The position numbers and the translations under genes are program-made. This document shows positions 23,444 through 62,822 of a stretch of 64,000 nucleotides of DNA, in pieces. The stretch is from the NCBI GenBank assembly GCA_041855685.1, contig JBHAEQ010000035.1:63151-127150 (forward strand), read 5' to 3'. Source of the stretch: Prevotella sp. (GTDB taxonomy: Bacteria > Bacteroidota > Bacteroidia > Bacteroidales > Bacteroidaceae). The stretch's first letter is position 1. Each line of letters opens with the position of its first letter. The notes beneath the pieces were generated by a model that saw only the letters and a list, made by a program, of their open reading frames with translations, made no database searches and was not told where the DNA came from.

Positions 23444-23448
23444 CTGTA

Positions 23449-23526
23449 TAAAAAAGGAGGCTGCCTTCACAGGCAGCCTTCCTATATTTTTTAGTTAATT
23501 AAGGTACGATTGTAAATCAGGATAAC
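23449..23526 (-). ncRNA. Candidate ~78-nt small RNA
   Basis: Minus-strand -7 box TACCTTTG (23538-23531) and CTTG 20 nt upstream; predicted +1 at G23526; ends in the hairpin plus U6; no ORF inside. Confidence 0.55.
23451..23490. terminator. Bidirectional intrinsic terminator
   Basis: GGAGGCTGCCT-tcac-AGGCAGCCTTCC hairpin with an A-run on the left and a T-run on the right. Confidence 0.88.
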
Positions 23527-23804
23527 GATGCAAAGGTATGCATTTAATTTGGTTTTTGCAAGAAAAAAATAGAACTTTTTTGATGGCGTTTGGTTGTGTG
23601 CGTACACAACTTGATATTTTAACAATTAGGAAAGAACAACACCTGAAAATATCTCTATTATTGATATAAAACAAAAAGTTTTGTTGTAAGCTTATCCACC
23701 TTTCCATTCGTTCTTTTTCCGGCAGTTCGTCCATTTTTATCGGCTCAGTCGAAATTTAGTGTGGGAGCTTTCAACTTGAGTTTAAGGAGTTAAGAGGTTA
23801 GAGA

Positions 23805-33405: not shown

Positions 33406-34122
33406 CTATTGATAAATCAAAGTTGGACTGAAGACAAAGGAACCGTCCTTGACAAATATATTACTAAGTTCCATCGACTTGGAGTGGTATTTCAGTACGA
33501 GAATTCCATCTTCGTTTGGCGCCCAATAGGTGTCATTGCCACTGGCATATACCACACCGTTGAAATTGAAACCACCTATACCGTCGAGATGGATGGCATA
33601 GCGCTGCATTAATTCGGAATATTGAATGCTTAGTGTGCCTTCCACCGTGAAGTCTGCATCGAAATGTTTTAAATCAGTCCAAGCAACCTGTGGGATTTGA
33701 CCCAAAGGCTTGCCGGCATAAACCCAGAGATTGTATGCATACCATCCATCGAAAGCCTCTGCTTCTGTGACGAAGTCATCGCCGGAGGAGGTTGCCTTCA
33801 GTTTGAATTTACCAGTGCCCATTCCTGTTCGGGTGTTGACATTGCCCGTCATTTCGAGTCCCTTGTGATTCATTGAGAAATTACCTTCGGCATCGAGGCT
33901 CAGTGTGCGGTTTTCAAAGGCGTCGATGGTGGCATAGCAGCGCTTGTTTGTAGGGAAGCGTATTTCCACCACACCTTTCAGATCGTGAATACCCTCGAGA
34001 TCGAAGTCATAAGTCTCCATGTTGCTCACGCTGTCTTCAAGGTCTTACGGAGGCGTGGCGTTGTCTATGCGGTTCACGGTGAGCGTTTTTTGTCCATCAA
34101 TGGCACTGAGACCGAACTTGCC
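33406..34122 (-). pseudogene. 5'-truncated gene fragment with an internal stop
   Basis: The frame of the 207-aa ORF continues upstream past TAA (34045-34047) as GKFGLSAIDGQKTLTVNRIDNATPP to another stop at 34123-34125; no start or signal peptide. Confidence 0.45.
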
Positions 34123-34194: not shown

Positions 34195-34306
34195 CATGTT
34201 TCTCAATTAAGGTGCACATGTTTCCCAATTGCGGTGCATGTGTTTCCCAATTGAGGCGCATGTGTTTCTCAATTGCGACGCATGTGTTTCCCAATTGGGA
34301 AACATG
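34195..34306. repeat. About five tandem 22-bp repeats ending in a perfect 20-bp palindrome
   Basis: Unit about catgtgtttcccaattgcggtg; last unit extends to TGTTTCCCAATTGGGAAACA. Confidence 0.92.
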
Positions 34307-34412
34307 ATAGGACTAATTGTTTATGGAAATTAAAGTCGTGCTTTGACAGATGTTTATGATAAGGTTCCGCAGATGATATAGATGATATTCGTTGATGCAA
34401 GTGCCTGAAAAT

Positions 34413-34450
34413 GAATTAGGGAGCAACTCTGCTTGAGCGCTCCCTAATTC
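34413..34450. terminator. Hairpin closing the small-ORF transcript
   Basis: GAATTAGGGAGC...GCTCCCTAATTC perfect 12-bp stem. Confidence 0.8.
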
Positions 34451-34644
34451 TTGTGTTATCCTTTTAATAATACCTCAATTATCTGTTTGAATGTATTTTA
34501 TAATATGTGCAACGTGTTGAAACGTTGTTTTAAATTTAATTTAAGACCTTCTTGAGACTGTTTATTTTGTGCTTGTTCTCAATGTAAGGTCGTTGCTACT
34601 AACTTTATGAACACTCATTCCTGCCATGGGAATAGAGTAGTTAC

Positions 34645-34731
34645 TTATGCCTTGCAGTTAAGCATCAGCTGGATTATATCTGAATCCAGACGGCGGTTAG
34701 CTTTCTTGATAATGTTTACAATCTTCTTCAT
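34645..34731 (-). CDS. Small ORF 2 (28 aa) MKKIVNIIKKANRRLDSDIIQLMLNCKA
   Basis: ATG after an A/T-rich Bacteroidetes-type leader (aagttaattATG); MKKI start shared with small ORF 1. Confidence 0.55.
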   Translation of the reverse strand: MKKIVNIIKKANRRLDSDIIQLMLNCKA

Positions 34732-34822
34732 AATTAACTTTCTTTCTAATTTAAACAATAGGCTCTTTTGTTGTGTGTTATCCTGTTTTTTTTAGAGCCG
34801 TTCTCTTTTTTTTAACTCCGCT

Positions 34823-34903
34823 TTATTTCAATGGAATCATGCCTGTAGGCAGAAACGCATTTGAGTTGAAAGCCTTTTTAAGAGTACTCTTAATCTTTTT
34901 CAT
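34823..34903 (-). CDS. Small ORF 1 (26 aa) MKKIKSTLKKAFNSNAFLPTGMIPLK
   Basis: First ATG downstream of a consensus promoter; A/T-rich leader (tactattATG); lysine-rich amphipathic N-terminus. Confidence 0.62.
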   Translation of the reverse strand: MKKIKSTLKKAFNSNAFLPTGMIPLK

Positions 34904-35008
34904 AATAGTACAAATATTTCAATTTAACATGTGCCCCATGTGTGTGTTGTTATCCTGTTCGTGTTTCATGGAGGGGCGTTAACCATGCTTGGAACTCATT
35001 TCCGAGTG

Positions 35009-35202
35009 CAAAATTACTATGATTTCAATGATTGGCATAATATTTCTACTACTTTTGGCTTTATCAGCTTGTTTCATTGATAAATATCCAAAAAAGCGTG
35101 TTATTAATTCTTTAATGACTAATATCAACAGGGTTAAAACCTTGTAATGTCAAAAACATGCTGTTGATTTCTTGTTGTTTACATAAACATTTTGTAATTT
35201 TG
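35009..35202. promoter_or_regulatory. Divergent promoters: minus TAATTTTG (35016-35009) for the small ORFs, plus TAATTTTG (35195-35202) for the 35240 operon
   Basis: Two exact -7 consensus boxes. Confidence 0.7.
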
Positions 35203-60344: not shown

Positions 60345-62693
60345 TTAGAATGTAACTCTTGTGCCGAGTGTCATGGTTCTTGGTGCTCCCCAGTATCCTC
60401 TGAATGAGTCAAGGTCGTGAGTGGAACCGTCGGTTCCACGCTCTATATATGAAGCATCAAGCAGGTTGTTGCATGTTGCGAATATGTTTATGCGTACATT
60501 GTCTGATACAGAGCCTTCCCAGCCGAATGTAGCATTAATAAGGTCATAAGCTGGTAATCGGTAGGCATCTTGAGCATCGGCTTTGGTGCGCGTTGATGGT
60601 TCAAAGTCGGCATACATGCGGGCATTGTGTTGCCAATCCAAATGAATGTATATTCCTTTGTACAAGCGGGCATCAGCTTGTGCGCCGAATTGTGTCTGTG
60701 GTGCATCTCCTACATGGAGTCCGTTGCTGTGAATAGAATATTCCTTGAGAGTTTCGCCGCTATATGAGTCGTAAATGATTGCATCGCCATTGCTTTTCCA
60801 TTTCCACGATGCTATCATGGCGTATGCTTTCAGCTTTAGCCAGCTTGCAGCTTGCTGGTAGGCAGAAATTTCTATTCCCTTGTGAAGGGCGTTGAGTCCT
60901 GTTATCTGGTATTTTTCCGTCGCTTCGTTGGCACGCTTTGCAAGGCTTACGGTAAGAGTCTTGTCTTTCCAAGAGGCAATATAGACTGAGGCTTCAAGTC
61001 CGCCGTCGTTCCATGATGTTCGTAGTCCTATTTCGCCGAGTATGTTCTTTTCGTTGGTGACATCTTTGGTTATTGACAGGTTGCTTGATGAGAGATATAC
61101 ACTGGCATAAGGCAGTCGGCTGCTGTAACCTGCATTGGCAAACACATCAACAGAAGGTGTTGAGGGCGTTGTTTGCATCAGGTGATAGAGAATGCCAGCT
61201 TTTATGCTTCCTCCCCAGCCGTGTGCCCATGCACTCTTTTTGCCTGTTATGTCGTTATGTCGTCGATAGTTTCCGTTGAACACTGCTGCTCCCAATGTGG
61301 TGCTTAAACTGCGGTTATTGTATTTTGCTTGTATGAATGCCGATGTGTGGTGGGTAGTTCTTCCATATCGGGCACCGGTGTAGTCACCTATTCCCACATT
61401 CTTCTTCGTAGTGCTGTCATACCAGTAGTCGCCACCGAGAAGGTCGAGAACTTTCATCTTTGACCATGTGTCGTAGTATTGATATTGCATTCCTACGGAG
61501 AGAGTTGCCTCGTTGGTGAGTTTGTAATCTCCCGAAACAATAGCTCCTGCCTGTGTATGTCCTGATAGATAGTCTATCAGTATGTTGTTTGACGCATTGC
61601 CTTCAGCAGTGGCGTTATTGCTGTTCTCCTCTATTACAGAGTTGAAGTCAATATGCCCATCGGCTGTTTGGTGGGCTATTATGCTCTTTTTGCCATATTG
61701 TCCGTATGTAGATCTGCCTCCTCCGTTGGCAATAGCCATGTAGATGGAGTTTTTCATTGAGAAGCGGCTGCCGTCGAGCAGATGCTGCAATGTGAAATAA
61801 GGTTTGTGATAATGATTGCGTGCTATGGAGTATTTGCTGCCGTAAAGATAGCCCCAGTTCTTGGAATATCCGCGTCCGAATCTGCTTATCTCGTCGGCAC
61901 TAAGCTCTGTATTGCGTTGGTCGTGCTCTTCGGGTGAGCCCAAAGCTGTGAATACTAAAGTGTTGGCGGCATTGAGCTGTTTGCTTGCAGAGAGCATGTA
62001 GGAAAATGTTTCTACGTCTGACACCTCTACGAACCCTTTGCCTTGTGTATATGAGAGCATGAGGTCAACATTCCAGTTGTCAGGTAGTTTGCCAGAAGAA
62101 AAGTTTAGCACTCCTTTGGTAAGTCCGTATTCTGTAGTTGTCAATCCGAATGAGCCGTTGGGATTTTCTCTGCCGGTCTTGGTTATTATGTTTACAAGTC
62201 CGCCCATTGATGTGTCGGCAAGCATTGAACCTCCTATGCCTTTCTGAATCTGTACGGCATAAGTTGCATCTGCCAATCCCATCCAGTTGCTCCAATACAT
62301 TGAGCCTGATGTGAGTCCTTGAATAGGAATGCCGTTAAGCATTATGGCAATGTTGTCCTGTTTGAAACCTCTCATGTTGAGCGAGGCATCGCCATAGCTT
62401 CCTGTTGTCGAGGTGGCATAGACTCCGGGTACGCCTTGCATCATCTCCACATAGTTGGGAGCAGCGGCATGCAGCCTGATATCACGTGGAGTGATAGTGG
62501 TCAGGGTGAGCGGTGTCACCTCTTCTTTACTAAAGTTTACACGAACCGATACCTCCTGAAGAGTAATAGGTGTATCGTTTGATAGAGAAACATGTACGGC
62601 ATCGTTTGTGCCGTCTTTCTTGCCTGTGCCCTCGGCACCTGCAAGTTGTGTGGACATAATCATGCCCAGCAAAACAACAAACTTTTTCATCAT
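60345..62693 (-). CDS. TonB-dependent receptor, non-SusC; candidate riboflavin/flavin transporter
   Basis: Signal peptide, plug GSYGDASLNMRGFKQDNIAIMLNGIP...YWSNW, terminal GTRVTF; directly under an FMN riboswitch. Confidence 0.9.
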   Translation of the reverse strand: MMKKFVVLLGMIMSTQLAGAEGTGKKDGTNDAVHVSLSNDTPITLQEVSVRVNFSKEEVTPLTLTTITPRDIRLHAAAPNYVEMMQGVPGVYATSTTGSYGDASLNMRGFKQDNIAIMLNGIPIQGLTSGSMYWSNWMGLADATYAVQIQKGIGGSMLADTSMGGLVNIITKTGRENPNGSFGLTTTEYGLTKGVLNFSSGKLPDNWNVDLMLSYTQGKGFVEVSDVETFSYMLSASKQLNAANTLVFTALGSPEEHDQRNTELSADEISRFGRGYSKNWGYLYGSKYSIARNHYHKPYFTLQHLLDGSRFSMKNSIYMAIANGGGRSTYGQYGKKSIIAHQTADGHIDFNSVIEENSNNATAEGNASNNILIDYLSGHTQAGAIVSGDYKLTNEATLSVGMQYQYYDTWSKMKVLDLLGGDYWYDSTTKKNVGIGDYTGARYGRTTHHTSAFIQAKYNNRSLSTTLGAAVFNGNYRRHNDITGKKSAWAHGWGGSIKAGILYHLMQTTPSTPSVDVFANAGYSSRLPYASVYLSSSNLSITKDVTNEKNILGEIGLRTSWNDGGLEASVYIASWKDKTLTVSLAKRANEATEKYQITGLNALHKGIEISAYQQAASWLKLKAYAMIASWKWKSNGDAIIYDSYSGETLKEYSIHSNGLHVGDAPQTQFGAQADARLYKGIYIHLDWQHNARMYADFEPSTRTKADAQDAYRLPAYDLINATFGWEGSVSDNVRINIFATCNNLLDASYIERGTDGSTHDLDSFRGYWGAPRTMTLGTRVTF

Positions 62694-62694
62694 T

Positions 62695-62803
62695 TTCTTC
62701 TTTCATCCAGACTTTAACTGTCGGTACCGTAGTTGCAACGGTTCGGCCTTATGGCTTGCGGACTATACCGCCGATCGGGAATTGCACCCTGCCCTGAAGA
62801 GTT
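62695..62803 (-). ncRNA. FMN riboswitch (RFN element)
   Basis: Minus strand UCUUCAGGGCAGGGUGCAAUUCCCGAUCGGCGGUAUAGUCCGC...CCGACAGUUAAAGUCUGGAUGAAAGAAGA matches the RFN consensus; P1 UCUUC/GAAGA. Confidence 0.96.
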
Positions 62804-62822
62804 AATATATAAAATTCGACTG

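Follow-up and report, generated by a model that had tools for sequence, protein, structure and literature searches.

The short sequence AGGAUAAC occurs three times on the minus strand within 510 nt of the window, which is the whole 64,000-nt stretch of Prevotella sp. DNA analysed here (GenBank assembly GCA_041855685.1, contig JBHAEQ010000035.1, positions 63,151 to 127,150). These copies are probably target sites of a small RNA (sRNA), a reading we would put at roughly 60%. The RNA that carries them would then be either the regulated mRNA of two micro-ORFs or a decoy for that sRNA.

The mechanism we propose is as follows. In 5' leaders of Prevotella and Bacteroides, AGGAUAAC would act in cis as an RNA element, and a core multicopy sRNA would dock on it with GUUAUCCUG, its single-stranded 5' end. 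Nucleotides 10-23 of the sRNA could pair, within the ribosome footprint, with target codons 2-6 (AUG-AAAAAGAUUGUUUU), and nucleotides 24-31 with UUAAGGUA beside the hairpin that holds the motif. This would control translation initiation, most simply by repression, and possibly mRNA stability too. The expression of both RNAs, their pairing and the direction of the regulation are inferred from sequence.

The window transcript is predicted to be around 595 nt long, and consists of two tandem leader paralogs followed by a long tail. Its features are listed in Table 1. Judging from the -7 box, transcription would start near 35004-35001. A single -7 box is weak evidence, since the pattern it matches is found 83 times in the window, where 64 matches are expected.

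Table 1 Coordinates of the features of the minus-strand transcript and of the sRNA gene in the window.
Feature	Position in window	Strand	Sequence or details	Basis
Candidate Bacteroidota -7 promoter box	35009-35016	-	TAATTTTG, about 25 nt upstream of hairpin 1	match to pattern TANNTTTG
Hairpin 1	34933-34977	-	GCCCC(uc)CAUG / CAUGGGGC; A/C-rich loop holding AACAGGAUAAC; GCCCC 34977-34973 with GGGGC 34937-34933, CAUG/CAUG extension optional	fold; one of 21 covarying leaders
Motif copy 1	34949-34958	-	ACAGGAUAAC; AGGAUAAC core at 34956-34949	sRNA nt 1-9 fully complementary to CAGGAUAAC
Micro-ORF 1	34823-34903	-	26 aa, MKKIKSTLKKAFNSNAFLPTGMIPLK, ATG at 34903	ORF call
Hairpin 2	34761-34799	-	GGCUCU / AGAGCC; 27-nt loop holding AACAGGAUAAC; GGCUCU 34799-34794 with AGAGCC 34766-34761	fold; one of 21 covarying leaders
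Motif copy 2	34777-34786	-	ACAGGAUAAC; AGGAUAAC core at 34784-34777	sequence and sRNA complementarity
Micro-ORF 2	34645-34731	-	28 aa, MKKIVNIIKKANRRLDSDIIQLMLNCKA, ATG at 34731	ORF call
Site 3, bipartite	34454-34479	-	UUGAGGUA 34478-34471 and AGGAUAAC 34462-34455	sRNA complementarity
Third motif copy	34453-34462	-	AGGAUAACAC, 2 nt before the terminator	
Intrinsic terminator	34408-34450	-	16-bp G+C-rich stem, then AUUUU	fold
sRNA paralog sC35	23447-23538	-	-7 box TACCUUUG at 23538-23531	promoter, 5' end, terminator, covariance-model match

A preliminary description of this locus had noted a repeated hairpin-loop motif 45 nt before each micro-ORF, different stems around the same loop core, and a third copy of the motif before the terminator. 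All of these are present on the minus strand. From the end of the motif to the AUG there are exactly 45 nt in both units, and from its start 55 nt. The arms of hairpin 2 are unrelated to those of hairpin 1. Both micro-ORFs start with MKKI. The two units align at about 57% identity, with the loop core and AUUAUGAA as their longest identical blocks. After duplication, they have retained an identical 11-nt loop core and the exact 55-nt spacing. Both are also paralogous to the leader found in a gene family for exported proteins of 119 aa.

Compared to shuffled sequences, the terminator region (34405-34500) is very stable, with a z of -6.8, and hairpin 2 is more stable as well (z = -2.3). Hairpin 1 on its own is no more stable than its shuffles (z = 0.06). 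Support for the hairpins comes from the comparison with related leaders, described below, and not from folding energy.

Searches with the locus itself returned little. An Rfam scan yielded only chance-level miRNA-like matches and no curated cis-regulatory family. By DNA similarity, the two-unit locus was not found in 40 relatives, where the sole match was a chance-like one in an enolase leader. A sequence-only model of the units turned up 2 useful relatives among 200 genomes. Neither micro-ORF has a protein family match or homologs elsewhere.

The surroundings hold some other elements. A 22-bp unit with a palindrome-like TTTCCCAATTGGGAAA/TTGAGAAAC is repeated in tandem 4.7 times at 34195-34297, in what looks like an operator array. 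It sits between the terminator and a 207-aa gene of unknown function (33406-34029, minus strand), for which an exact-protein look-up gave no further contigs. Further away, at 62691-62805 on the minus strand, there is an FMN riboswitch (102.6 bits).

By its count alone the motif does not stand out in the window. AGGATAAC is present 4 times in the window where 1.76 are expected, and because 12 of 100 shuffles also reach 4, this count alone is weak evidence. The clustering is significant however: given 114 occurrences genome-wide per 5.3 Mb, three same-strand copies in 510 nt are expected about 0.011 times. The window transcript also has 3 seed sites of -11 kcal/mol or better, which none of 300 dinucleotide shuffles match.

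AGGATAAC is also part of two repeats in this genome, which contain it for unrelated reasons. One is a dispersed intergenic repeat, ..GCAAATATGAGAAAATAGAAGCATTAGGATAACnTTTTnGTTATC.., with 8 listed copies (C3:21225, C19:30800, C20:10024, C33:30196, C33:80843, C49:151966, C50:5734 and C54:16383). The other, CTATAAGGATAACTATTGTTATCTTTG, has about 5 copies. Two more leaders in this genome carry AGGAUAAC some 20 nt before a start codon, each downstream of a TAACTTTG box: one at C50:34348 (+), before a 128-aa signal-peptide protein, and one at C31:34265 (-), before a 157-aa protein. A motif-seeded RNAduplex scan of the genome gave mostly long-loop artefacts in coding DNA, and was left out of the ranking.

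The preliminary description raised the possibility that the loop is a site for an sRNA seed, and pointed to 23449-23526. A member of a near-universal multicopy sRNA family does lie there, and its invariant 5' end opens with nine bases that exactly complement the motif. This genome has three paralogous genes for the sRNA, one of them in the window, each with a canonical promoter, an RNA starting with GUUAUCCUG and its own terminator. The string CAGGATAAC occurs 39 times in the genome, and in 3 of these cases it is the reverse complement of TAnnTTTG-(4-5 nt)-GTTATCCTGA. In the window, the RNA would run from G23526 (GUUAUCCUGAUUUACAAUCGUACCUUAAUUAACUAA...) to a terminator U-run near 23447. Both loops hold CAGGAUAAC, which is perfectly complementary to nt 1-9 of all three paralogs; for motif copy 1 this amounts to 9 bp and -14.1 kcal/mol.

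A covariance model, R1, was built from the three copies in this genome. It matches 381 of 401 Prevotella genomes, and 181 of the 183 high-quality ones, with 1-5 copies in each. By these matches the predicted sRNA is a near-universal, core multicopy gene of the genus. A near-identical gene or core is found in a sister genus.

Thirty sRNA loci were aligned. A canonical -33/-7 promoter precedes a conserved G, and the bases between the -7 box and this G vary, so that conservation starts exactly at the G of GUUAUCC. From there GUUAUCCUGAAAACAAUCUUUUUACCUUAA is near-invariant: the next 30 nt are the same in 29 of the 30 loci, the remaining one (L062) having a single change at nt 12. The terminator stems differ between loci. 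The sRNA is predicted to be about 80-120 nt long, and its first 50 nt are unpaired in the predicted centroid fold.

In another genus the sRNA has a variant 5' end, GAUAACCUA, in 9 of 10 genomes. A single-copy homolog with the variant 5' end GAUAACCUAAAACAAUCUUUUUACC is located at G776:C1:3967049-3967150 (L194), and there is one in 8 other genomes of that genus. Separately, this genome has another sRNA-like unit at G000:C18:82958-83064 on the minus strand (L004), with a TAATTTTG box, an internal hairpin and a terminator. It is a weak match to the Rfam family BTnc060 and lacks the GUUAUCCUG seed.

For an sRNA target site one expects an uninterrupted complement of 7 nt or more to a part of the sRNA that is conserved and unpaired. 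Here it spans 9 nt, the site is both conserved and accessible in leaders of orthologs and paralogs, and the window transcript has 3 seed-complementary sites.

The complementarity does not end with the motif. In many genes of a family of 119-aa proteins, codons 2-6 (AAAAAGAUUGUUUU) are complementary to nucleotides 10-23 of the sRNA (AAAACAAUCUUUUU) over 14 of 14 bases. Nucleotides 24-31 (UACCUUAA) complement UUAAGGUA, which neighbours the hairpin in about half of the leaders of these genes, and precedes it there. In enterobacteria, pairing within the first five codons blocks initiation.

Shorter complements of this kind are found in the window. Codons 2-4 of unit 1, AAAAAGAUU (34900-34892), complement sRNA nt 15-23, and AAGAAGAUUGU of unit 2 (34728-34718) complements nt 13-23. 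In unit 2, GAUUGUAAA (34723-34715) is complementary to UUUACAAUC, a divergent block of the sRNA paralog encoded in the window itself. At the level of nucleotides, complementarity to the next block of the sRNA accounts for the MKKI start that the micro-ORFs share. In site 3, UUGAGGUA complements UACCUUAA of the sRNA and AGGAUAAC complements GUUAUCCU, with a pairing energy of -17.1 kcal/mol for the genus consensus and -23.7 kcal/mol for the paralog sC35.

On the mRNA the complementary blocks are permuted, and this rules out one continuous helix per sRNA molecule. Either separate sRNA molecules would have to occupy the permuted blocks, or the pairing would need a topology that is not contiguous.

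In the genus in which the sRNA starts with GAUAACCUA, no clear leader motif was found to change along with the seed. Motif scans there were at noise level, and the tandem pattern stood at control level. There is a single suggestive case: the glnB-amtB spacer in three variant-seed genomes contains AGGUUAUCAGGUA..AAAAGGUAAACGUGAUUAUG, complementary to the variant seed and to UUUACCUU. In the genome studied here, amtB was not detectable. One-mismatch variants that preserve pairing number 5 (1.5 expected) and those that break it 6 (9.5 expected), which is too few to decide.

The motif is by no means restricted to this locus. In 401 Prevotella genomes, AGGATRAC is found 30-50 nt before ATGAARAAGATT in 53 cases, against 0 for the reversed control. 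When looking for two copies followed by ATGAARAA in one genome per species (185,579 species), 119 stretches emerged. Of the 80 of these that were listed, about 50 are from Prevotella or Prevotellaceae and a few from Bacteroides. In the sister genus a simpler pattern gave 92 matches versus about 36 for the control, which was counted by hand, or roughly 2.5-fold. Recurrent micro-ORF leaders are again found behind the motif there.

After dereplication there were 82 leaders, with 171 copies of the motif in the sense orientation and 1 antisense. A leader usually has 2-4 copies, irregularly spaced with distances such as 12, 16, 21 and 22 nt. The strand bias and irregular spacing argue for an RNA-level rather than a DNA-level element. 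Over these leaders the motif logo is (A/U)(C/A)AGGAUAACAA, and the full consensus (A/U)CAGGAUAACAA. Position -1, which pairs with G9, is a C in 62% of cases. Position -2, which pairs with A10, is a U in 37%, where the background is 24%. The two bases after the motif are A in 87% and 82%, and this AA is unexplained by pairing if the sRNA starts at G1.

The genes behind such leaders mostly belong to the family of about 119 aa, whose members carry a signal peptide and match neither Pfam nor NCBIfam. The others are small outer-membrane beta-barrel proteins and conserved micro-ORFs of 24-34 aa. A conserved protein of about 31 aa with a C-terminal M(A/L)(R/K)MYNY-like motif is found behind AGGAUAAC leaders in Prevotella (L106, L149, L150, L131), and a 24-aa peptide, MKKLRKLFRHFGEADKNIWGYVML, in Bacteroides (L136 and other Bacteroides rows).

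Many of the 119-aa genes (L022, L023, L027, L083, L133 and others) lack a canonical -7 box and have TTTAAACC..(~15 nt)..GCGTCAAAGA instead. This resembles an ECF-sigma promoter, a hint that the target family may be part of an envelope-stress regulon. There is also a conserved AAAGAAAGGA 8-12 nt before the AUG in several leaders (L024, L025, L036, L042, L201-L208). Being complementary to the 3' tail of 16S, it is a Shine-Dalgarno-like box, an unusual feature in Bacteroidota.

The leaders in which the motif sits in a hairpin come in two classes. The first comprises some of the 119-aa-gene leaders; their layout is ..(UUA)AGGUA-stem-loop-stem-GAGUAAAGAAAAGAAAGGA..AUG, and the loop holds the motif. 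The second consists of the two units in the window and three close relatives. Together the 21 leaders have 16 distinct stem pairs, for example GGGGC/GCCCC, GGGACC/GGUCCC, GGAGCC/GGCUCC, AGGACU/GGUUCU and GGCUCU/AGAGCC.

To the preliminary description, the same loop in different stems pointed to selection on RNA structure. The comparison supports this, since the stems covary across the leaders, even though hairpin 1 alone is not unusually stable. Out of 126 cells, 117 are paired (93%), compared to a mean of 95 (75%) with permuted partners, and 5000 permutations never attained 117. Choosing the 5' anchor anew within every permutation again gave 0 out of 5000.

Loop length ranges from 14 to 102 nt across these leaders. 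With such variation the hairpin is not a ligand-binding fold, and display of the motif seems to be the only role of the stem. The sites are probably kept accessible in one of two ways: leaders that are A-rich and unstructured carry them in tandem, or a hairpin holds them in its large loop, with the sequence of the stem being free.

The main rival to the sRNA reading is that the motif is the site of a sequence-specific, CsrA-like RNA-binding protein, with the sRNA complementarity either coincidental or competing. The preliminary description had left the choice between an sRNA seed and such a protein. The comparative data support the sRNA seed, its first option. CsrA and RsmA bind GGA in hairpin loops, and here too there is a loop-exposed GGA that is repeated in leaders. 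The core is highly invariant, 2-4 tandem copies per leader are typical of protein sites, and the conserved AA extension that pairing leaves unaccounted for would fit as well. Yet the conserved core is much longer than a CsrA site, the loops are large and variable where those of CsrA are hexaloops, and tblastn found no CsrA, Hfq, ProQ, CspA or RRM homolog in this genome, which is 93% complete. For CsrA the query was the E. coli protein, and nothing matched at E <= 1. These absences agree with a report that S. copri has no known sRNA chaperones (bioRxiv 10.1101/2024.04.05.588293). An exact 9-nt complement of the 5' end of a core sRNA, accompanied by two further blocks, is moreover unlikely to arise by chance. 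All in all we consider a protein site unlikely.

Somewhat less probable still is that no RNA acts in trans, and that the motif works purely in cis on translation or stability in the leaders of highly expressed envelope proteins, for example as a ribosome standby site, an enhancer or an rRNA-complementary box. Its A-rich unstructured context upstream of start codons and its link with genes for exported and outer-membrane proteins would suit this, and the 23S rRNA of a relative contains the 9-nt complement UUAUCCUGU; this assembly itself has no rRNA. At -12.0 kcal/mol that match is no better than what shuffled motifs achieve (mean -9.8, best -13.2), however, and 16S offers only a 7-mer. Such an element would also leave unexplained why the sRNA starts with the exact complement, and why its next blocks match the start-codon region. 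About as improbable is that the window locus is a decaying remnant, made up of the duplicated 5' ends of a lost 119-aa gene, in which the motifs have no function. No recognisable 119-aa gene was found in this genome, the micro-ORFs are without family match and not conserved elsewhere, and the locus was not found in 40 relatives by DNA similarity. Decay is hard to reconcile with an identical loop core, exact spacing and complementary stems in units of only ~57% identity, or with a third bipartite site and an intact promoter box and terminator. One relative, furthermore, retains both the full gene and a micro-ORF paralog. Direct repeats near promoters could finally be a DNA operator for a transcription factor, downstream of the promoter. 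With a 171:1 strand bias, irregular repeat spacing, and copies that sit in hairpin loops with compensatory stem changes, this is very improbable.

The sRNA reading leaves two options for the window RNA, a regulated micro-ORF mRNA or a decoy, because the leader paralogs precede only micro-ORFs, and because there is a third site. Elsewhere, conserved micro-ORFs behind the motif favour real small proteins in general. A coding role is therefore conceivable for the micro-ORFs in the window too, although these have no homologs.

A much bolder version of the sRNA reading can also be formulated, but we regard it as doubtful. The 595-nt RNA would then be a dedicated decoy that sets the level of free sRNA, and the first sRNA sponge in Bacteroidota. 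The sRNA would engage its targets through three circularly permuted blocks, which together span all 31 nt of its conserved 5' region, forming a pseudoknot-like or multi-molecule complex without a chaperone. The predicted sponge would consist of two duplicated target leaders plus a bipartite site.

Sponges for sRNAs are known from enterobacteria, where examples are the chbBC spacer for ChiX, SroC and 3'ETS-leuZ. An RNA with several sites for one seed and little coding content could titrate the sRNA in the same way. The putative decoy described here would differ from them in being built from duplicated target leaders that retain their start codons. No description of a sponge in Bacteroidota was found in the literature, and in a 2026 review the word "sponge" does not occur (PMC13750123). 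Searching the literature for the motif or the seed string gave only unrelated siRNA and primer papers, and no description of either.

Among Rfam families the best relative of the sRNA is BTnc060 (RF04184) from B. thetaiotaomicron, to whose 3' half it is homologous. The core of the sRNA, CGUUAUCCUGAAAACAAUCUUUUUACCUUAA...CUAAUACCUAUUG, and its terminator are shared with model positions of about 120-213 of BTnc060, and the core is also present in the Rfam consensus. Only the 3' half aligns (model about 90-213), and scores remain below the gathering cut-off of 228.9 bits: the best copy reaches 52.1 and the window copy 26-31. Both the 30 aligned loci and the sister genus show a near-identical core with an intrinsic terminator behind it. 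The sRNA here is multicopy and starts at its own canonical promoter. BTnc060 is described as an uncharacterised, growth-phase-dependent sRNA that is up in mucus-adherent cells (bioRxiv 10.1101/2025.09.08.672848). No published target of it was found in the literature.

FopS and GibS of B. thetaiotaomicron, with their susC leaders, are similar in several ways (PMC11697453). They also have multicopy paralogs, canonical promoters and a conserved 5' seed, and in a phylum that lacks Hfq they pair with envelope-protein mRNAs close to the start codon. In Bacteroides, FopS acts beside start codons. The targets proposed here add repeated identical upstream sites, or a loop-presented site, to the start-codon site. 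As identities of the sRNA, FopS and GibS were rejected, since scores stay below the cut-offs of the Rfam families RF04319 and RF04182: 22.6 bits versus 56, and 21.8-23.4 bits versus 115. RbpB, which counteracts FopS (PMC11697453), has no detectable homolog in this genome. SrcF of S. copri was rejected as the partner as well, as it is a different RNA of 272 nt.

What would be new here are the first predicted targets for an uncharacterised sRNA of the Bacteroidaceae. To our knowledge, very few sRNA-target pairs have been described in Bacteroidota, a phylum without Hfq, and Prevotella and Segatella have no known sRNA chaperones. With this analysis, a near-universal sRNA of Prevotella and Bacteroides, of unpublished function, gains a predicted recognition motif, a target family and a candidate decoy. 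Its predicted primary targets are the 119-aa exported proteins, small outer-membrane barrels and conserved micro-ORFs. For a leader motif that is widespread in rumen and gut Prevotella, this provides a candidate explanation. The function of BTnc060-type sRNAs would also become testable in B. thetaiotaomicron, where genetics exist.
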